64,000 nucleotides of DNA from Alphaproteobacteria bacterium (GTDB taxonomy: Bacteria > Pseudomonadota > Alphaproteobacteria > UBA2136 > UBA6156). The notes beneath the pieces are model-generated. The model was not told the origin of the DNA, searched no databases, and saw nothing but the letters and a program-made list of their open reading frames with translations. The stretch spans positions 83,875 through 147,874 of the forward strand of contig DATAJX010000001.1 in assembly GCA_036261915.1 (NCBI GenBank), in the 5' to 3' direction. Positions 24,416 through 62,994 of this stretch are shown in pieces. Both the position numbers and the translations under genes were made by a program. Positions within the stretch are counted from its first letter, which is position 1; the number at the start of each line of letters is the position of its first letter.

Positions 24416-24886
24416 TCAACGTCCCGCGCGGCGGGGCAATCCGCGGAACAGTTCATTCATCGGCATCTTGGGTTGGCGTATCTGCCGCACCCACTGGCGC
24501 CGGGGCTTGCAGGCGGGGCAGCCGCGCCGGTCGTTGGTCTGCACCAGTCCAAACTCTTCCCAGTTTTCATGGGCCGGGTTTCTCAGGCAGCCAAAGGTGT
24601 TCCTGTTGCGGGCACCCCGCCATTCTCCAACCACCCGCACGCCCAGCGGTTCAAGGCGGCTGGCCGGGTGGCCCTTGCCCTCGTTCAGGGCCTGCGCGCA
24701 CTCAGGGCAACCACGGCCCAGCTTGGTCACGTCATAAGGAGTGGCTTTCCATTCGTGGCCGCAAACCTTGCAAAACCAGCGTTCCGGATAACTCAACCGG
24801 GTCAAATCCGGCCCCATGTAGGCCATGTCGCCACGCTGGGCGGCAAATTCACGCAACACGCGTCCCTTGATCAGTGGATGGGCCAT
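24416..24886 (-). CDS. Zinc-ribbon domain protein (two CxxC...CPxC modules)
   Basis: CKVCGHEW...CPEC and FGCL...CPAC paired-Cys motifs; start set at ATG 24886 with GGAGG 5 nt upstream. Confidence 0.5.
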   Translation of the reverse strand: MAHPLIKGRVLREFAAQRGDMAYMGPDLTRLSYPERWFCKVCGHEWKATPYDVTKLGRGCPECAQALNEGKGHPASRLEPLGVRVVGEWRGARNRNTFGCLRNPAHENWEEFGLVQTNDRRGCPACKPRRQWVRQIRQPKMPMNELFRGLPRRAGR

Positions 24887-24993
24887 GTCAGCCTCCATAA
24901 AAAGAAATAACGGTTTCAACGCCCCACTGCCTTAATTGTATACATTTGTCAACAGTTGGTGAAACCGCCCCCCTATGCTAAAACCCGCACCTC

Positions 24994-26368: not shown

Positions 26369-27181
26369 ATGCCGCATCCCATGGGCGGGTGCTGGGCAAA
26401 GCTCGAAAGGGCAAAATCCACGGTGGCCGAACTGGAAAAAAGCATCACCGATTACCTGAAGCCCGGCTCGCCCCACTTCACCATCACCTCCGGGCATTTC
26501 AATCAGTTCACCGAATTCGGCTACACCGTAGCGGGCAAACCTTTGCCGCTGTCGTTCGCGGTCATGGCGGGCGAGGTCCTGCACCACCTGCGCTCCGCGC
26601 TCGACTACGCGCTATGGGCGTTGGCCAGTCAAAAGATCGAACCCGGGCGCGACCTTCAATTTCCTTTATGCGACAATCCCTCCGATTTTCAGGAAAAGCT
26701 CCGCCGTAAAAGCTTCAAAGGCATCAGCGAGCAGGGCAGGGCGCTTATCGAACAACTGCAACCCTACAACAGCCAGCCCGATCCCCACCTCTCCACCTTC
26801 AAGGCCCTGTCCGAATATAACAACATCGACAAACACCGCCTGCTCCTGGTCGTCTCCGCCGCGGCGCAAATCGGCAATACCATCAAACTGGGTGATGACG
26901 GCAAGGCCACGGGTCCCACCGTGATTAAGGGTTTCGGCCCGCCCGACGAAGTCATGGTCACCGAAGAAGGTACCCGCGTGTTCACCATTTATTTCGACGG
27001 CCCCCATCCGCACGCCAACGCCCAAATGGAGATAAAGCTGAAGGCCTATTTCGCCCCCGTTCCCCACATCCTGCCCAAGGTCGAATTCATCTCCGGGCTG
27101 CAATTGCTGTGCGCCAACGTCGAAGATGCGCTCAAACGCCTTCAAGCTCTGTTCGATAGGGAATTCCCTCCCATGGGCTAA
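26369..27181 (+). CDS. Hypothetical protein (270 aa), unknown function
   Basis: ATG 8 nt after glmM stop; no recognisable motif; followed by a strong terminator. Confidence 0.5.
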   Translation: MPHPMGGCWAKLERAKSTVAELEKSITDYLKPGSPHFTITSGHFNQFTEFGYTVAGKPLPLSFAVMAGEVLHHLRSALDYALWALASQKIEPGRDLQFPLCDNPSDFQEKLRRKSFKGISEQGRALIEQLQPYNSQPDPHLSTFKALSEYNNIDKHRLLLVVSAAAQIGNTIKLGDDGKATGPTVIKGFGPPDEVMVTEEGTRVFTIYFDGPHPHANAQMEIKLKAYFAPVPHILPKVEFISGLQLLCANVEDALKRLQALFDREFPPMG

Positions 27182-27230: not shown

Positions 27231-27295
27231 TCAGCAACCTTACGCCGCCGGTCAGCTCCATTCCGCAAATGTAAGCTTGCTTACACGTGCAAATA

Positions 27296-27425
27296 TGAAA
27301 AAGCGGCTTTGAGGCCGCCCCGACATTCCCGCATCACCCGCGCATCATTCACGCTCGTTTAAAGGCCAAATCGCATCACAAGTGTACAGCTCAACATCAC
27401 TCGCGCATCACCTGCGCAGCATTAT
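27296..27425. repeat. Dispersed repeat family B copy 1 (cgcatcac-rich element)
   Basis: ~105-bp segment CCGACATTCCCGCATCACCCGCGCATCAT...TGTACAGC...CGCGCATCAC similar to 45442..45556. Confidence 0.5.
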
Positions 27426-27760
27426 TGCCCTTCTTGAGGCGTCTTGGCGATGAACGACATTTCCGTAAGCCGCGTCACCGGGTTGTAGCCATTCAGCTTC
27501 ACGAAAGCATACGGGTGGCGGCGCGCGCAGCTCTCCACGTGCGCCATCAGTTGCCCGGCGGTCAGCGCCTGCGGCTGGCCCTCGGCGCCAAAGCGCGTCG
27601 GCAATATCGGCCACTGCCGCCAGTAAAAATCGGCATGGGTCGGGGTCTCGCTGAATTCGATGCTGGCCACCCAACCGTTGGCAATGAGCGTATGCGCCTG
27701 CGCCTCAATTTGCGCATTGCTCAGTGGTGGCAAAAAAGCAAAAGTTTCAAATCTTTGCAT
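27422..27760 (-). CDS. RuBisCO small-subunit (RbcS/CbbS)-like protein
   Basis: MQRFETFAFLPPLSNAQIEAQAHTLIANGWVASIEFSE....FYWRQW.......VKLNGYNPVTRLTEMSFI aligns along its length with form I RbcS (cf. RFETFSYLPPLSD.QIAAQIEYMI..G..P.IEF......FYW.MWKLP); ATG 27760 7 nt after the NUDIX stop. Confidence 0.8.
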   Translation of the reverse strand: MQRFETFAFLPPLSNAQIEAQAHTLIANGWVASIEFSETPTHADFYWRQWPILPTRFGAEGQPQALTAGQLMAHVESCARRHPYAFVKLNGYNPVTRLTEMSFIAKTPQEGQ

Positions 27761-27767
27761 CACGTCC

Positions 27768-28166
27768 TCAATCTATCCTGTTAATTTGTTTCAGCCAGTC
27801 GAAGATCAACACGGCGGCCCCGCCCACGCGCGGTCGGTCGGCATGGCCAAGCCACGCCATGTCGTCTATCTCGCTCGCGGGTTTCAGCACGCCGGTGTAA
27901 TCGCCGCCGTAGCAGGCAATGCGCACCAGCGTGCCTTCAGGCTTGCCGTGGGCCTGCGCTTCAAAGGTGTCCAGGTACTCCAGGTTCTCCGGCGCCAGTT
28001 GCACGTTCAGTTCTTCACCGATTTCGCGCACCAGCGCCTGCTGGTCGGTTTCACCGGCCTCGCGCTTGCCGCCCGGAATATAGTAAACCTGCTGGCCGCG
28101 GCTGCGCACCATCAGCACGCGGCGGTTCTCCACCCGCAGCCAGCCCAGCTTATCAATGCTCGCCAT
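27768..28166 (-). CDS. NUDIX hydrolase
   Basis: NUDIX box GGKREAGETDQQALVREIGEELNV (Gx5Ex7REUxEE); start ATG overlaps the stop of the upstream RbcL-like gene (TAATG). Confidence 0.8.
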   Translation of the reverse strand: MASIDKLGWLRVENRRVLMVRSRGQQVYYIPGGKREAGETDQQALVREIGEELNVQLAPENLEYLDTFEAQAHGKPEGTLVRIACYGGDYTGVLKPASEIDDMAWLGHADRPRVGGAAVLIFDWLKQINRID

Positions 28167-29905
28167 TACGCGTCGTCCTCGGGTTCGTCATCGTCCTTGC
28201 GCGGCGCAAACGGCTTGATGTTATCCGGCTTGGGGGCAGGGAAGGTCTGCACCTCGCCACCGGTGGCCTTGCCCACGCCGGGGTTGGTGCCGGTCCCGCC
28301 AATCACACCGAACAGGAACGCACCCTCGTGCCAGTGGTCCAGCGCGGCCTTCAGCTCGGGGCAATAGCGCGCGGCCTTGCTCAAAATGGTGCGGCCTTCC
28401 ACGGCCAGGCTCACACCCTCGTTACGGGCCTGAACCAGCGCTTCAATGGCGGTACGGTTGGCAATGGCACCGGCCTGGCTGCCCCAGGGGTGTCCCATGA
28501 TGCTGCCGCCACATTGAATGACCACATGGTCGCCCATCGCATCGATCAGGCGGGGGAAGTGCCACGGGTTGTGCCCGCCGCCCACGGCCGGAATGGCCGG
28601 GTTCAACCCATGGAAAGGCTGGCTCACATAGTGCCCGGTGTCGGGCGCAGCCTGCACCAGGTCGTCGCGCAACGCGGCCATCACGCCGCTCACCTGGCGG
28701 CGGTTGGTCACGCTGCCGCGCAGCGGGCTGGCGGTGCTCACCATGTCGCAACCGGCCCAGCGCAACAGCTTGGCATGCAACTGTTCGCTCATCATGTCGC
28801 CGCTCAGGGCGCGGCCGCCCATGGCGCACAGCACCATCTCGTTCTTGCGGCACCACTCGGTCAGGCTGTGCAATGCGGCCCAGCCAATCGCCACGCTGTC
28901 CACCATCACCATGGCCATTTCCATGTCCTTGGCCCACAGCGCGCGCTCCAGCATCAGGTCAACAGTGGGTGCGGTAATATTGCAGGCATGGCTTTTAAAC
29001 TCATTGGTCTCGCGCATGGCGGCATGGGCGGCTTCTGCGGCGTACCTGAAGCGCTCGCGCCAGCCGTTGGTGGGTATGCTGTGCAGCAAAACCGGGTCGG
29101 CGCAAAAATCGGCCCCGCCCACCAGGGCCTCGTACACCGCGCGGCCATATTGACGGGCACTCAACCCCTGCATGGGGCGGATGGTACAGCTCATCAGCGG
29201 GCGCCCGTGCTTGTTCATGGCATCGCGCAAGCCGCGCACGCCAAAGGCCGGGCCGCGGAAGGTCCGGGCCAGCAGTTCCGGCAATCTAATATCCATCAGC
29301 CGCGCGCCGGTGCCGGTCAGCGCCGCGCTCACCACGCTCAGCACGCCGGGCACGCTGCCGCCTTCAATCAACAGGTGGGGCACCAGCAGGTGCAGCCGTA
29401 TCCGGCGCGGGCCCACGGTCTCGGCATGGGTCACGGCGGGCTGCGGCTGGGTCGGGTCGGCATATTCCTGCGTCCAGCTGTCCACCCATACGCCTTGCAT
29501 GGCGCTGCTTATCAGCTTGCTGGCGCTGGCGGGGGTGTGGTCCGTATCGGCCAGTTCCAGCACGGCGGTTAAAGCGGTCTCCGGGCTCAGCACGGCCGAA
29601 GCCCCGCCACCCACCACCGGCACATTATCCGCCTGCGGCGCCACCAAACTGTCCAGCGGCACCCCCAGCGCCCGGGCGATCTTCACCACGCTGCCAAAAC
29701 CGGGGTTGGTATGCCCGCTCAATATCCGGCTCAGGCTGGCCATGCTCACGCCACTGGCCCGCGCCAGCTCGGCCGAGCTCATGCCCTTGCCCGCCAACAA
29801 TTCCTTAATAACGTCGCCCAAGTTTTCCGAATGTATCATGTTGCGTTTATGGAATACCCCTTGCAAATACGCAACCAAAAAACCGCCTTTTCCGGCAAGT
29901 CTCAT
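28166..29905 (-). CDS. HTH(XRE)-RuBisCO large-subunit-like fusion protein (non-canonical active site)
   Basis: Residues ~25-85 are an XRE-type HTH (LGDVIKELLAGKGMSSAELARASGVSMASLSRILSGHTNP). The rest aligns with the RbcL N- and C-domains (FRGPAFGVRGLRDAMNKHGRPLMSCTIRPMQGLSARQYGRAVYEALVGG; GGGHNPWHFPRLIDAMGDHVVIQCGGSIMGHPWGSQAGAIANRTAIEALVQARNEG). The catalytic K175/K177/K201/D203/E204/H294/H327/K334 equivalents are replaced. Real start may be the internal ATG ~29839 (MIHSENLGD...). Confidence 0.8.
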   Translation of the reverse strand: MRLAGKGGFLVAYLQGVFHKRNMIHSENLGDVIKELLAGKGMSSAELARASGVSMASLSRILSGHTNPGFGSVVKIARALGVPLDSLVAPQADNVPVVGGGASAVLSPETALTAVLELADTDHTPASASKLISSAMQGVWVDSWTQEYADPTQPQPAVTHAETVGPRRIRLHLLVPHLLIEGGSVPGVLSVVSAALTGTGARLMDIRLPELLARTFRGPAFGVRGLRDAMNKHGRPLMSCTIRPMQGLSARQYGRAVYEALVGGADFCADPVLLHSIPTNGWRERFRYAAEAAHAAMRETNEFKSHACNITAPTVDLMLERALWAKDMEMAMVMVDSVAIGWAALHSLTEWCRKNEMVLCAMGGRALSGDMMSEQLHAKLLRWAGCDMVSTASPLRGSVTNRRQVSGVMAALRDDLVQAAPDTGHYVSQPFHGLNPAIPAVGGGHNPWHFPRLIDAMGDHVVIQCGGSIMGHPWGSQAGAIANRTAIEALVQARNEGVSLAVEGRTILSKAARYCPELKAALDHWHEGAFLFGVIGGTGTNPGVGKATGGEVQTFPAPKPDNIKPFAPRKDDDEPEDDA

Positions 29906-30684: not shown

Positions 30685-30761
30685 TGGTGGCGCCTCACGG
30701 ATTCGAACCGCGGACACGAGGATTATGATTCCTCTGCTCTAACCAACTGAGCTAAGGCGCC
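30685..30761 (-). tRNA. tRNA with CAT anticodon (elongator Met or Ile2/lysidine type)
   Basis: Reverse complement GGCGCCTTAGCTCAGTTGGTTAGAGCAGAGGAATCATAATCCTCGTGTCCGCGGTTCGAATCCGTGAGGCGCCACCA folds as cloverleaf; anticodon loop ATCATAA; G1-C72 pair so not initiator. Confidence 0.85.
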
Positions 30762-44609: not shown

Positions 44610-45212
44610 TTAAAGGCTTTGCGGCGGCAACAGCAAACCGGCGTGTTTTACCAGCAAGGCGTCCACGGCTTCCATATCCGCAACAACCCCCAACGCGGCA
44701 AGGCTGGTCACGGGTTTGTCCAGCCCGCAGGGCCTTATCCGGGCATACGCGCCCAAATCAGGCGCCACGTTCAGCGCCACGCCGTGGTACGCCACCCATT
44801 TCCTCACCCGCACGCCAATGGCGGCGATCTTGGCTTCACCCACCCAAACCCCCACATCGTCGGTGATCTCGCCCTTCACCCCCAAATCGGCCAAAACCGC
44901 CACCATCCACATCTGCAAGCGCTTAATGTAGGCCCGTATATCTCGGTCCTCCAGCCTCACAACCAGGTAAACCACCCGCTGCCCCGGCCCGTGGTAAGTA
45001 GTCTTGCCGCCGCGCCCGGTGGTAAGCACCGGAATATCCCCCGGGTTCAAAACCTCACCCGCTTCGGCGCTGCTCCCGGCGGTAAAAACCGGCGCGTGCT
45101 CGCAAAAAATCACCTTTTCCGGCCCACCGGCCAGCACATCGGCCAAGGTTTCCTCCATGCGCAGAACACCCTGTTCGTAAGGGGTCAGCCCGGGCCACGT
45201 TTCAAATTGCAT
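44610..45212 (-). CDS. lipB: Octanoyltransferase LipB
   Basis: LipB-like (TYHGPGQRVVYLVVRL, KIAAIGVRVRKWVAYHGVALNV); start set to ATG 45212 because the longer ORF would overlap the tRNA-Leu. Confidence 0.85.
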   Translation of the reverse strand: MQFETWPGLTPYEQGVLRMEETLADVLAGGPEKVIFCEHAPVFTAGSSAEAGEVLNPGDIPVLTTGRGGKTTYHGPGQRVVYLVVRLEDRDIRAYIKRLQMWMVAVLADLGVKGEITDDVGVWVGEAKIAAIGVRVRKWVAYHGVALNVAPDLGAYARIRPCGLDKPVTSLAALGVVADMEAVDALLVKHAGLLLPPQSL

Positions 45213-60858: not shown

Positions 60859-62994
60859 AATCGAAAGCAACACCGGCTGCCCGGTTTTCACGCTCTCGGC
60901 CGCCGCCAGAATCACATGACTGCTATGCAACAGCTCGGCCACCGGCACAGGCACGGGCGCGCGGCCGCGGCAGGCATCGGCAAACGCCTGCAACGCAGCG
61001 GCATGGCCCTTGTCGGCGCTGCCGAAAAACCCCCGGCACTTCAGTGTGCGGCCGTTCCAGAGCGTAGTCTTGTAATTGGTCATCACGCCGCTGTTGCCGC
61101 CGCCGCTCACGCTCACCATTTCCTTCGGCGCCTGCGGGTGGTTCTCCGACGTGTATAAAATCACGCTCAAACTGCCGTCGCGGTGGCGCAAGGTTATGCT
61201 GTAGCAATCCTGCCCCTTCCCCGCCGTGGCGGTCACGCTCTGCACCGGGCTGCCGGCAAGGTAAAGCGCAAGGTCGGTAAAGTGGCAGGCTTCGCCCAGC
61301 AAACGGCCGCCGCCTTCGGCCCCGCTCTGCCAGTTGGCGTCGTCCAGCTTGCCCGCGTTCACGCGTATCATGATCTGTTTCGGCCCGCGCACTTCGGCCA
61401 GCTTGTCGCGCAGCGGCTGCAGGTAGGGCGAAAAGCGCCGGTTGAACCCCACCATCAACACCTGCGGGTGTGCCCGGTGCGTGGCCTCGATCTTTTCCAG
61501 GTCCTTGGCGGTCAGGCTCAACGGCTTTTCCACCCACACGTGCTTGCCTGCCTTCAGCGCACTCACCACCTGCGCGGCATGCGCGCTGTGGCGGGTCGAA
61601 ATCACCACCGCATGGGTGTTGGCATCCTCCAGCAGCGCGTTCTCGCCGGTCGCGGCAAACGTGGCCTCGAATTTCTCCATCGCATGCGCGGCGGTCAACC
61701 CGCCCTTGCCTGCGATCCCGGCCAGCGCCACGCCATCGGTCTTCTTCAGCAACGGCAGCAACGTACCGCGTGCAAACGCACCCGGGCCCAGCAGGCTCAC
61801 GCCCAGCTCATCACGGCGCAACGCCACGCTGGTATAAGGCTGCTCGGCCTGCAACTCGGGGTAAGCCAGCACCACGCCCAGCGTGTCGCCACCCTTGGCG
61901 ATCATCTCATAAGCCTTCAACGCGTCACCGAATTCAAACATGTGGCTGGTCAGCAAACCCACATCCAGCGTGCCCGCCGCCATCAGTTCTAAAACTTCGC
62001 GCAGGTGGTCGGCTTCGGTGTGCGGCACATACCCGGCCGGGTAGGCCACGCCCTGCTGCTCAAACGCCGGGTCGTAGCGCCCTGGCCCGTAGCTGCGGCT
62101 GGTCTTTACCGTCAGTTCCTTCTTCATGAAATCCGCGTAAGGGAAGGCCGTCCCCACCTTGCCCACCAGCACCACCGTGGCGCGGTCGCGGGCCCAGGCC
62201 GCAGCCTGGGCAATCGGCCCGTCGCTGTCGGTCGCGGCACAGATCAAAACCGAATCAAACCCCCGCCCGCCGGTAAACTCGGCAAAAGCGGCATCAGCTG
62301 CGGCGGCACCGCTCGCGGCCAGAATCGCCCCACCCTGCACAGCCAGGTCCCCACGCTGCCTGTTCGGGTCAAACCCGGCCACCTGGGCCCCGGCGGCGGC
62401 GGCAATCTGCACCGCCAACTGCCCTACAAGACCCAAGCCCATCACCAGCACGCGGTCGCCCAACGCCACACCGGCATTGCGCACGCCCTGCAACGCAATG
62501 GCCGCCAGCGTGGCATAACACGCATGTTCAAACAGAACACCCTCCGGCATCTTCGCCGTCAAATTCTTCGGCACGGCATTCACCTGCGCATGGTTGGCCA
62601 AACCGGCACCGGCCATGGCCACGCTGTCGCCCACGGCGTACAGGTGCGCCACGCTGGCACCCACCGCCATCACGGTGCCCGCGGCGCTGTAACCCAGCGG
62701 CAAAGGTTCGTCCAAACGGCCGAACACGCTCTGCAGCGTCGCCGCCAGCCCGTCGCGCTTCAGCTTGCCCATGGTCTTGGCCACCAGGTCGGGGCGGCTT
62801 TTGGCCTTACCCACTAAACTCTTGCTGGCAAATTCCATCACCATGCGCTCGGTCCCGGCTGAAATCAGGCTGGCCTTGGTGGCCACCAAAACTTCGCCCG
62901 TCCCCACGCTGGGCAGCGGCACGGTTTTCATCTCAATTTTGCCTTTGCGCACGTTCTGGGTGATCTGCTTCATCTTGTTCTTCCGTTTAAGCAA
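60856..62994 (-). CDS. Bifunctional oxidoreductase: zinc-binding MDR alcohol-dehydrogenase-like N-domain fused to Gfo/Idh/MocA C-domain
   Basis: N-terminal MDR fold (GTERMVMEF... Rossmann GLGLVGQLAVQ), C-terminal Gfo/Idh/MocA region (HAVVISTRHSAHAAQVVSALKAGKHVWVEKPLS, EACHFTDL); polysaccharide-biosynthesis-type fusion. Confidence 0.7.
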   Translation of the reverse strand: MLKRKNKMKQITQNVRKGKIEMKTVPLPSVGTGEVLVATKASLISAGTERMVMEFASKSLVGKAKSRPDLVAKTMGKLKRDGLAATLQSVFGRLDEPLPLGYSAAGTVMAVGASVAHLYAVGDSVAMAGAGLANHAQVNAVPKNLTAKMPEGVLFEHACYATLAAIALQGVRNAGVALGDRVLVMGLGLVGQLAVQIAAAAGAQVAGFDPNRQRGDLAVQGGAILAASGAAAADAAFAEFTGGRGFDSVLICAATDSDGPIAQAAAWARDRATVVLVGKVGTAFPYADFMKKELTVKTSRSYGPGRYDPAFEQQGVAYPAGYVPHTEADHLREVLELMAAGTLDVGLLTSHMFEFGDALKAYEMIAKGGDTLGVVLAYPELQAEQPYTSVALRRDELGVSLLGPGAFARGTLLPLLKKTDGVALAGIAGKGGLTAAHAMEKFEATFAATGENALLEDANTHAVVISTRHSAHAAQVVSALKAGKHVWVEKPLSLTAKDLEKIEATHRAHPQVLMVGFNRRFSPYLQPLRDKLAEVRGPKQIMIRVNAGKLDDANWQSGAEGGGRLLGEACHFTDLALYLAGSPVQSVTATAGKGQDCYSITLRHRDGSLSVILYTSENHPQAPKEMVSVSGGGNSGVMTNYKTTLWNGRTLKCRGFFGSADKGHAAALQAFADACRGRAPVPVPVAELLHSSHVILAAAESVKTGQPVLLSI

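Follow-up and report, generated by a model that had tools for sequence, protein, structure and literature searches.

The operon described here encodes a putative DNA-binding protein built on the body of a Rubisco large subunit (hereafter L) together with a Rubisco small-subunit homolog (hereafter S). We think it probable, though by no means assured, that the pair constitutes an autoregulated XRE-type transcription factor whose sensor or oligomerization module is a catalytically dead form I L with its cognate S. The operon lies in a 64-kb window, by which we mean the whole stretch of DNA that was analyzed, and its genes are ordered L, a NUDIX hydrolase gene, and the rbcS-like gene (Table 1). 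Family-wide statements below are based on 77 L clusters and 37 S clusters, with reading frames intact in more than 35 loci.

Table 1. Features of the HTH-RbcL-like/rbcS-like operon, with positions given in the window
Feature	Position	Strand	Basis and remarks
Terminator-like hairpin	27300..27321	minus	About 100 nt 3' of the rbcS-like stop; pattern scan only
rbcS-like gene (S), 112 aa	27422..27760	minus	ATG start; last gene of the operon
NUDIX hydrolase gene, 132 aa	27768..28166	minus	PF00293, E 1.1e-11; between L and S
HTH-RbcL-like gene (L), 557 aa from the conserved ATG	28166..29839	minus	HTH_3 and RuBisCO_large (Pfam)
Disordered Pro/Gly/acidic C-terminal tail of L, residues 503-557	28169..28333	minus	AlphaFold2; family consensus
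Complete, catalytically dead form I RbcL body (N-domain and TIM barrel), residues 89-502 of L	28334..29575	minus	Foldseek; active-site table, 77 members
XRE/Cro-C1-type helix-turn-helix, residues 7-66 of L	29642..29821	minus	PF01381 (HTH_3), 50.3 bits, cut-off 23
Candidate operator O1, TTCCATAAACGCAA on the minus strand	29841..29854		1 nt before the ATG; PWM
Candidate operator O2, TTGCGTATTTGCAA on the minus strand	29861..29874		20 bp upstream of O1

S is a full-length small-subunit homolog with an invariant N-terminal arm

A first-pass annotation of this DNA had read the product of the last gene as an RbcS homolog over its whole length, and our searches uphold that reading. The open reading frame (ORF) is preceded by a GAGGA Shine-Dalgarno-like site 7-8 nt 5' of its ATG, and its product matches the Pfam profile RuBisCO_small (PF00101) at 69.1 bits (cut-off 27; E 3.2e-19), with residues 4-108 aligned to positions 1-97 of the 97 in the profile. 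When S was compared with the PDB by phmmer, each of the 54 matches was a Rubisco small subunit and no CcmM chains were among them; the best matches (1uzh_C, 7qsw_B, and 6lrr_T; E ~1e-16) were cyanobacterial or green-type and reconstructed ancestral chains. The AlphaFold2 (AF2) model of S (pLDDT 83) gave form I small subunits as its top Foldseek matches (6z1f_I, 2ybv_B, and 7qt1_D; TM ~0.72, probability 1.00).

Across the 37 S clusters, mean column identity is 71%, and the invariant residues R3, F4, E5, T6, F7, L10, P11, P12, W47, and W50 make up an N-terminal arm, RFETF.LPP, and a W..W motif. These residues align with the same motifs of cyanobacterial S, namely the conserved L-binding arm ETF.YLPPL and W..W, and S keeps both the small-subunit fold and the segments that contact L in real Rubisco. 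Although invariant, the arm is modeled with low confidence when S is folded in isolation, as would be expected of an interface segment. S also carries an 8-residue insertion after the betaA-betaB region and ends in KTPQEGQ, an invariant, disordered C-terminus.

L joins an XRE-type HTH to a Rubisco body without catalytic residues

We set the start of L by comparison across 20 loci, and the NCBI model P0038 has the same start; the longest ORF extends to 29905. In the AF2 model of L (pLDDT 88.9), the helix-turn-helix (HTH) domain is a five-helix bundle whose nearest solved structures are HigA, SinR, and C.BclI, and the recognition-helix segment S(V/M)ASLSRIL is kept across the family. A non-conserved linker of low AF2 confidence (residues 67-88) leads from the HTH to the RbcL body. 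L matches RuBisCO_large (PF00016) at 210 bits, and its top Foldseek matches are the form I L chains 6hbc_B, 3zxw_A, and 7qsw (target-normalized TM 0.87-0.92), with an rmsd of ~2 Å over ~440 residues. Beyond the body, pLDDT falls below 50 for residues 509-557, and the tail contains a TPF motif that is conserved in the family consensus.

In the window L, the carbamate lysine and the Mg2+ ligands (K201, D203, and E204) are replaced by A, P, and V, and K175, K177, H294, H327, K334, and N123, which are kept in no family member (n=77), by R, M, M, S, G, and A. All 77 members share K175R, H327S, S379G, and the replacement of K201 by A, C, or V; D203P is found in 76, K334G in 75, and H294M in 73, while E204 is T in 70 of the 77 and T, V, A, or S overall. 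Judged from these alignments, carboxylase activity of L is excluded, since the residues for carbamylation, Mg2+ binding, enolization, and carboxylation have all been replaced. What the family keeps is R295 (77/77), T173, D202, and the phosphate-binding glycines G380, G381, G403, and G404. Conservation of at least 90% is seen at 15 of 25 former active-site positions versus 132 of 416 positions domain-wide (Fisher p = 0.0025), and newly conserved basic residues (G333R, N207H, I382H, and A389R) line loop 6 and the 377-389 segment.

L is closest to green-type form I Rubisco

In NCBIfam, L scored below all Rubisco cut-offs (PRK04208, 319 bits with a cut-off of 438; TIGR03326, 197 bits with a cut-off of 497), with 319 bits for the form I/III model versus 110 for MtnW and 57 for OiaX. 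Among the best 60 of 99 PDB matches of L, almost all were form I and reconstructed ancestral L chains and none was a form IV Rubisco-like protein, and a rough neighbor-joining tree placed the family as sister to form I. By sequence and fold, L comes closest to the S-bearing green-type form I and not to classical form IV, the class suggested for it initially, and 'form I pseudoenzyme' is its most fitting description. Since L is a form I pseudoenzyme, the retention of S reflects inheritance and not a new recruitment.

The pair resembles green-type (IA/IB) L8S8 form I enzymes in the full-length homology of L and S, in the L-then-S gene order, in its best PDB matches, which for L and S alike are cyanobacterial, plant, IA, and reconstructed ancestral chains, and in the N-terminal arm and W..W motif that S retains. 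On the other hand, L has no catalytic residue, Mg2+ ligand, or carbamate lysine, an HTH and linker stand in place of the first ~30 RbcL residues (an estimate from alignments), and a disordered tail of ~50 residues has been added; S differs by its insertion and its invariant C-terminal end, and the genes lie outside any Calvin-cycle context among the window ORFs scanned. Form IV proteins (MtnW/YkrW, OiaX, Photo, and NonPhoto) resemble L in being non-carboxylating members of the Rubisco superfamily in heterotrophs, but they are enzymes without a small subunit, whereas L is co-encoded with S, has lost the metal site, and bears a DNA-binding domain. A HMMER scan of 1.84 billion representatives returned no HTH-Rubisco lineages outside the family, and in the full-text literature we found no description of an HTH-fused or S-bearing non-catalytic Rubisco, with 'IV-GOS' (Tabita et al.) lying outside this comparison.

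L and S are conserved as a pair outside a Calvin-cycle context

In the window, L and S belong to one operon without being immediate neighbors, because the NUDIX gene, whose start overlaps the L stop by 1 nt and whose translation shows an intact Nudix box, lies between them. This slot is empty in most loci and is a variable 'cargo' position, occupied elsewhere by a cytidine/dCMP-deaminase-like gene (L006), a glyoxalase/VOC gene (L014), or a 178-aa gene (L013). In a deep clade of uncultured alphaproteobacteria, ~33 of 36 loci have S directly 3' of L, and in most loci the gap ranges from a 4-nt overlap to 34 nt, with codons often overlapping. Pairwise identities of L and S are correlated (r = 0.86 over 23 pairs), as expected for co-divergence. 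The divergent subclade L031, L037, and L046 has no S within the flanks examined, so an adjacent S can be dispensed with in part of the family.

Synteny with proS, glmM, and ftsH is kept in 11 loci, which argues for vertical inheritance, and all-against-all clustering of flanking ORFs returned only this synteny as conserved partner genes. Among the ~45 window ORFs scanned with Pfam, we found no PRK, CbbX/Q/O, or carboxysome genes, and the remaining ORFs are housekeeping genes by eye. Rfam and tRNA scans of the window detected four tRNAs only. The locus itself sits near a tRNA gene, among variable small ORFs.

These results bear on several claims of the first-pass annotation. It had placed S next to a non-catalytic L, and a degenerate-active-site L is indeed encoded in the same operon, but with the NUDIX gene in between. 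It had listed no prk or cbb genes, in agreement with our scan, and it had proposed looking for S genes without an L-like neighbor; S does not occur widely without L, and every family-type (non-cyanobacterial) S locus has L directly upstream. Its central idea was that the two proteins interact for something other than CO2 fixation. Conservation and co-inheritance of the pair outside a Calvin context speak for this. As far as sequence can tell, the interaction would most plausibly serve assembly or stabilization of the HTH regulator; for its other suggestion, that S acts as an allosteric partner, no specific support was found.

A candidate operator overlaps the L promoter

In nearly all lineages, the L promoter is overlapped by a conserved palindrome-like 14-mer, TTSCA-N5-GSAA, which was seen in ~20 loci and often in two copies. 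In the window, O1 overlaps a -10-like CATAAA (29846-29851) and O2 overlaps a -35-like TTGCGT (29869-29874). The two boxes are separated by 17 nt, and the -10-like box lies 6 nt from the ATG, an arrangement that suggests a leaderless L transcript. Upstream of L, the degenerate pattern shows an 85-fold enrichment, and it gave 21 matches compared to 0.16 in shuffles. Using a position weight matrix (PWM) trained with related loci left out as groups, we found that for 18 of 20 loci the locus-wide best match lay no more than 125 nt 5' of the L start, and O1 was the best or second-best match in the 64-kb window after its own sites and those of the closest relative had been excluded from training. Exact 4-mer dyad enumeration did not recover the imperfect palindrome, for which this criterion was too strict. 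Given the overlap with the -35-like and -10-like boxes, the conservation of the 14-mer could partly reflect the promoter.

Matches at 44670, 62981, and 27261/27287 were considered as further regulon sites and rejected as near chance, with five matches of at least 14 bits compared to 1.1 expected, two of the five being the operator itself; the pair at 27261/27287, downstream of rbcS, is not conserved in the closest relative. Clustering of flanking ORFs likewise yielded no conserved target gene besides the operon itself. Terminator-like sites are as numerous as expected from shuffles, so the hairpin downstream of S is weakly supported.

Alternative roles of the remodeled Rubisco body

The dead Rubisco body and S could serve as an oligomerization platform only, presenting HTHs in pairs or in eight copies with no effector in the old site, and with control exerted through abundance, the C-terminal tail, or partners. 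In keeping with such a platform, the N-domain contributors to the active site (E60, T65, and N123) vary within the L family, which would fit an intact two-subunit ligand site less well, and no conserved ligand candidate or pathway lies beside the operon. The invariant disordered end of S and the TPF motif of L further hint at extra protein contacts. However, the former active-site positions are conserved above the domain average and uniformly replaced, and a structural role would not obviously need the retained R295 and glycine motifs or the new basic residues. We regard a purely structural role as unlikely, if still deserving of serious attention.

Conserved and non-random pocket replacements would also suit a bifunctional enzyme-repressor, comparable to PutA or BirA, in which the pocket converts a phosphorylated substrate by a new, metal-independent reaction that still requires S, and enzyme occupancy is relayed to transcription through the HTH; the inserted 'housecleaning' genes (NUDIX, deaminase, and glyoxalase) hint at a metabolic theme. 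Such chemistry is improbable in our view, since K201, D203, and E204 are gone together with the general bases/acids K175, H294, and K334, and no pathway genes are conserved nearby. To our knowledge, moreover, all characterized members of the Rubisco superfamily, Rubisco-like enzymes included, use the carbamate-Mg2+ site.

We give very little credence to a mobile defense or toxin-antitoxin-like module in which the XRE regulator and its sensor control variable effectors such as the NUDIX protein or the deaminase. Generic PADLOC HTH models match the HTH, the candidate model PDC-S07 matches the NUDIX protein, the gene between L and S varies, and a tRNA gene and variable small ORFs are close by; but the PADLOC matches concern generic domains only, with none to the RbcL body or S, the inserted gene is absent from most loci, and the conserved synteny points to vertical descent across a deep clade. 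Finally, although the form I fold is complete and a cognate S is present, we dismiss both a still functional form I carboxylase and a pair of decaying pseudogenes, since K201, K175, H294, H327, and K334 are kept in no member and NCBIfam scores fall below the Rubisco cut-offs, while both frames are intact and strongly conserved across the loci and clusters sampled.

Discussion

We favor an autoregulated transcription factor in which L assembles through the Rubisco L2 dimer, probably into L8S8. The two HTH domains of each L2 dimer would bind the palindromic operator and repress the operon, and this autoregulation would extend to the small enzyme gene between L and S, which encodes a NUDIX hydrolase here. 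A phosphorylated or otherwise anionic metabolite may bind the remodeled pocket and, once bound, shift the geometry of the HTHs via the N-terminal segment; in a true Rubisco, this segment covers the active site on closure.

S is probably kept because form I L came to rely on it structurally, needing it to stay soluble and to keep the octamer stable. We base this rationale on reconstructed ancestral form I enzymes (Schulz et al. 2022 and 2024), in which L substitutions entrench S for precisely these properties (PMC11696622). The AncLS chains 7qsw_A and 7qsw_B are among the best matches of the two subunits, but in the reconstructed proteins the dependence bears on both catalysis and stability of an active enzyme; since catalysis is gone in the present family, only a structural dependence could remain and explain the retention of S. 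The S-less subclade appears to have escaped this dependence by losing S, and it indicates that the scaffold can work without an adjacent S.

A more specific form of this proposal, which we put forward tentatively as a possibility, is the exaptation of an entire L8S8 hexadecamer as a transcription factor. With four L2 dimers facing outward and a pair of HTHs on each, one particle could engage several operators (O1 and O2, or distant sites). DNA binding would be switched by a sugar-phosphate-like ligand held in the dead site, through the closure of the N-terminus and loop 6 that Rubisco already possesses. S would then be held by structural entrenchment only, with the S-less subclade as a natural escape.

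Known regulators of related design include MocR/GabR, which join an HTH to an aminotransferase-like fold, and RpiR, which joins an HTH to SIS. L shares with them an N-terminal HTH, a linker, a large dimerizing enzyme fold with lost or changed catalysis as the sensor, and a likely palindromic, autoregulatory operator. It differs in that the sensor fold is that of Rubisco, for which such a role is unreported, in having a separately encoded accessory subunit, and in an assembly that may reach 16 chains. Redeployment of S has parallels too. The SSUL domains of CcmM are repeats within another protein and lack the N-terminal arm. In both these domains and an insertion in the form III Rubisco of Methanococcoides burtonii, the fold or function of S is redeployed for assembly and not for catalysis (PMC9833052). 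Unlike the S described here, which is free-standing, full-length, and paired with a dead L, both serve active carboxylases.

JGI records label genes of this family as 'ribulose-bisphosphate carboxylase' large and small chain, so false autotrophy calls are possible in metagenome surveys. By convention, S marks the carboxylating form I enzymes, and homologs that do not carboxylate are taken to be enzymes without S. The family breaks both rules, with a form I-derived L-S pair that has no possible carboxylase chemistry and a fused DNA-binding domain. Since its S-less sister subclade allows a direct comparison, 'entrenchment' (constructive neutral evolution) becomes testable in extant proteins, and the regulator may offer a tool for sensing a sugar phosphate or related metabolite. 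Altogether, it seems that a gene regulator has taken over the enzyme body of Rubisco as its sensor or scaffold; if so, control of transcription would join the functions already known for the Rubisco fold.

An RbcS homologue shares an operon with an HTH-fused RbcL-like protein

The product of the rbcS-like gene (S) aligns along its entire length with Pfam RuBisCO_small (E 3.2e-19, 69.1 bits; gathering score 27). Each of its 54 PDB sequence matches is a Rubisco small subunit; cyanobacterial/green-type chains and reconstructed ancestral ones lead the list (E ~1e-16), followed by IA chains (~1e-10) and red-type IC and ID chains (1e-5 to 1e-3). An AlphaFold2 model of S, built from 37 family sequences, adopts the small-subunit fold (pLDDT 83), with form I small subunits as its top Foldseek matches (TM ~0.72). 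The first-pass annotation, which had called this ORF an RbcS homologue and suggested the profile search, was thus correct. The S family comprises 37 clusters (90% identity), each of 111-116 aa, with a mean column identity of 71%. Its invariant residues cluster in the W47/W50 motif and the N-terminal arm (R3, F4, E5, T6, F7, L10, P11 and P12). Despite its invariance, the arm is modelled at a pLDDT of ~50 in the isolated chain, as expected of a segment that is ordered only on its partner.

The operon begins with the gene for L, a Rubisco large-subunit homologue fused to an XRE-type HTH domain, whose start we placed at the conserved M23 of the longest ORF (reaching 29905), in agreement with NCBI's own model. 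S had been described as lying next to L; the shared operon holds, but in the window one NUDIX gene separates the two, and S begins 7 nt past it, behind a GAGGA site. A NUDIX gene also occupies this slot in the homologous locus L008, and other genes do so elsewhere (see the table), tightly packed or overlapping in the window, L006, L013 and L014. Several of the slot products resemble metabolite "housecleaning" enzymes and would be under shared control with the L-S pair.

Features of the operon, its surroundings and homologous loci (positions without a locus handle refer to the window)
Feature	Position	Strand	Remarks
rbcS-like ORF (S)	27422-27760	-	112 aa, start MQRFETFAFLPPLS
NUDIX gene	27768-28166	-	132 aa; start overlaps L stop by one base
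HTH-RbcL-like gene (L)	28166-29839	-	557 aa; first gene of operon
Candidate operator O1	29841-29854		TTCCATAAACGCAA; 1 nt before ATG of L
Candidate operator O2	29861-29874		TTGCGTATTTGCAA; 20 bp from O1
S residues 106-112	27425-27445		invariant C-terminal KTPQEGQ
L tail, residues ~509-557	28169-28315		conserved TPF motif
Cytidine/dCMP-deaminase-like gene	L006:7510-8004		in L-S slot
Glyoxalase/VOC gene	L014:5593-5958		in L-S slot
178-aa protein gene	L013:2174-2710		in L-S slot
S-less HTH-RbcL-like gene	L031:5001-6599		~41% identity to window protein
S-less HTH-RbcL-like gene	L037:2420-4024		~41% identity to window protein
S-less HTH-RbcL-like gene	L046:2953-4578		~41% identity to window protein
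P0243, HTH-less homologue	L036:382-1845		same dead active site; short Lys-rich N-terminal tail MKKKSTLKAPTIKPIRTGKNKKP
tRNA-Met	30685-30761		close upstream of operon
270-aa ORF	26369-27181	+	no Pfam or PADLOC match; not conserved in related loci
DUF4379 treble-clef zinc-ribbon gene	24416-24919	-	167 aa; not conserved in related loci
Operator-like 14-mers	27261-27274, 27287-27300		14.5 and 13.9 bits; 26 bp apart
Operator-like matches	44670-44683, 62981-62994		~16 bits each; near chance expectation

L derives from form I Rubisco and has lost its catalytic residues

L scores 50 bits with Pfam HTH_3 and 210 bits with RuBisCO_large. The NCBIfam form I/III model gives 319 bits, under its cut-off of 438, and the Rubisco-like enzyme models score far lower (MtnW 110, form II 82 and OiaX 57 bits). 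The PDB matches listed (60 of 99) include no form IV Rubisco-like protein and consist almost wholly of L chains from form I or reconstructed ancestral enzymes, headed by the reconstructed AncLS (7qsw_A) and cyanobacterial IB enzymes (E ~1e-88). In the AlphaFold2 model (pLDDT 88.9), residues 7-66 form a five-helix HTH and residues 89-502 a complete RbcL N-domain with TIM barrel; the linker between them (67-88) has low confidence, and the tail (509-557) is disordered. The RbcL body superimposes on form I L chains over ~440 residues (target-normalised TM ~0.9, rmsd ~2 Å), and a rough neighbour-joining tree places the L family as a monophyletic sister to the sampled form I sequences. L therefore descends from S-bearing form I Rubisco and is not a classical form IV protein.

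The active site had rightly been called degenerate. In an alignment of 77 family clusters to genuine form I sequences, each catalysis-essential residue is replaced: K175 by R (77/77), K177 by M, L or I (S in one cluster), K201 by A, C or V and never K, D203 by P (76/77), E204 by T (70/77), H294 by M (73/77), H327 by S (77/77), K334 by G (75/77), S379 by G (77/77) and N123 mostly by A. R295 (77/77), T173, D202 and W66 (72/77) are kept, as are the phosphate-binding G380, G381, G403 and G404. The replacements are uniform, with at least 90% conservation at 15 of 25 former active-site positions versus 132 of 416 domain-wide (Fisher p = 0.0025). Other changes conserved within the family are concentrated in loop 6 (TVVGK to SPLRG) and residues 377-389, and basic residues are gained (G333R, I382H, N207H and A389R). 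Judged from the aligned residues, carboxylation and any carbamate-Mg2+ chemistry by L are excluded, and L probably retains a conserved, remodelled, putatively anion-binding pocket.

The pair is conserved at an orthologous chromosomal site

Every recovered context of a family-type S, in metagenomes and 19 species-level genomes, shows a co-oriented HTH-RbcL-like gene immediately upstream. Starting from L, the homologues P0113 and P0101 have S of 95 aa and 104 aa, respectively, and among 11 further metagenomic L loci S is present in nine and absent in one, and one contig is too short. Overall, S lies directly downstream of L in ~33 of 36 distinct loci, in most of them with a gap between a 4-nt overlap and 34 nt, which answers the earlier question of co-occurrence in favor of a pair. 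L and S pairwise identities are correlated (r = 0.86, 23 pairs). The only other conserved neighbors are proS, glmM and ftsH (11 loci), a synteny that identifies the chromosomal site as orthologous and vertically inherited.

The stretch between proS, L-S and glmM carries variable small ORFs without a Pfam match and looks like a variable chromosomal spot within conserved synteny. The DUF4379 gene lies between glmM and ftsH, beside the operon. In L014, L015 and L009, sequences that resemble tRNA genes by eye immediately precede L.

The S-less loci L031 (protein P0114), L037 (P0245) and L046 hold the most divergent family members and form one subclade with the HTH-less P0243 in the neighbour-joining tree. 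No rbcS-like gene was found in the available flanks of the three loci, and the P0243 contig is too short to show neighboring genes. In L031 and L037, L is preceded by a conserved gene for a 621-631-aa membrane protein (34% identity between the two) with no Pfam match.

A candidate operator and a proposed mechanism

The HTH of L is a generic XRE/Cro-C1 domain, nearest among solved structures to HigA, SinR and C.BclI, and family members share the recognition-helix segment S(V/M)ASLSRIL. In the ~120 nt upstream of the L start, a palindrome-like 14-mer, TTSCA-N5-GSAA, is present once or twice at nearly all loci (for example TTGCATAAATGCAA in L006), and the S-less members have it too. O1 and O2 are the two best PWM matches in the whole 64 kb. 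A degenerate form of the motif shows an 85-fold enrichment upstream of L, and it gives 21 matches versus 0.16 in shuffles. Since it was derived from these same sequences, we added a leave-group-out test: in 18 of 20 loci, a PWM excluding the tested locus and its close relatives placed the locus-best match (7-64 kb) at most 125 nt before the start codon of L. O1 and O2 overlap -35-like TTGCGT and -10-like CATAAA boxes (17-nt spacer, 6 nt before the ATG), which suggests that a leaderless transcript may be repressed there. Because of this overlap, the promoter rather than an operator could account for part of the 14-mer conservation.

Two further operator-like 14-mers lie downstream of rbcS, intergenic between two terminator-like hairpins; the closest relative, L008, does not share them, which makes chance the probable explanation. 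Of the two matches farther away, one falls within a lipB-like gene (by eye) and the other where a UDP-glucose-dehydrogenase-family gene adjoins one for a fused ADH/GFO oxidoreductase.

We consider it very likely that L is a DNA-binding regulator and likely that it regulates its own operon. We propose an autoregulated XRE-type transcription factor whose sensor module would be a dead form I L-S complex, dimerizing and probably octamerizing. In the Rubisco L2 dimer both N-termini lie on the outer face, related by the two-fold axis, and closure over the bound sugar bisphosphate involves the N-terminal segment, loop 6 and the C-terminal strand. Given this position and closure, HTH domains on 20-residue linkers could pair on a palindromic operator, and whether the remodelled pocket is occupied could influence their geometry; we give ligand sensing in the former active site an even chance. 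Rivals of the proposal are a ligand-free scaffold and a bifunctional enzyme-repressor. A defence module is essentially excluded, with PADLOC evidence against it, as is an active carboxylase, given the replaced catalytic residues, or a pseudogene pair.

Host and novelty

Pfam scans of the window revealed cell-envelope, secretion (TatC and T2SSE ATPase), peptidase and ABC-transporter genes; FtsH (read from its translation), GlmM and ValS are also present, and several others, ProS, DnaE and PyrG among them, were identified by eye from translations only. In line with the reported lack of prk and cbb genes, no PRK, CbbX/Q/O or carboxysome genes were found in the parts of the window checked. No cultured relative of ValS exceeds 48% identity (Dongia), and its relatives at 50-70% are encoded on the same long contigs as L and S; from these relationships the host is a deep, uncultured alphaproteobacterial lineage. 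MAGs with the locus (L011, L014, L016, L028 and L008) are titled Pseudomonas fluorescens, Blastochloris viridis, Pseudomonadaceae or Pseudomonadales, which look like mis-assignments.

No other HTH-Rubisco lineage emerged from a full HMMER scan of 1.84 billion representatives, and in the literature searched we found no description of an HTH-fused Rubisco or of S with a non-catalytic L. One family member lies on contig AACY020311001.1 (L040), which we take from its AACY prefix to be Global Ocean Sampling/Sargasso Sea data. The family has therefore been public since the 2000s and might overlap Tabita's "IV-GOS" Rubisco-like group. Its genes carry the database labels "ribulose-bisphosphate carboxylase" large/small chain or [quoted passage not shown]. 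The L-S pair joins two known kinds, the Rubisco-superfamily pseudoenzyme and the enzyme-derived transcription factor. The representative search also returned other fusions (P0376, P0296, P0302 and P0315), which join a TIR domain to a Rubisco-like protein (by eye, K201 seems to be replaced there), an IF-2B domain (whose family has ribose-1,5-bisphosphate isomerase as a member) to RbcL, and RbcL to an APH-type kinase domain.

Why the small subunit is kept

The KTPQEGQ end of S and the TPF motif of the L tail are absent from canonical Rubisco; since both are conserved though predicted to be disordered, they suggest extra family-specific contacts. An L-S complex is very likely, with indirect support from the invariant N-terminal arm and W47/W50 motif of S. 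In experiments with reconstructed form I enzymes, a few L substitutions make solubility and octamer stability depend on S (PMC11696622). By analogy, a form I L without catalysis would still need S, and no new function of S would be required. The L-S pair separates the structural role of S from catalysis, with an S-less sister group for comparison.
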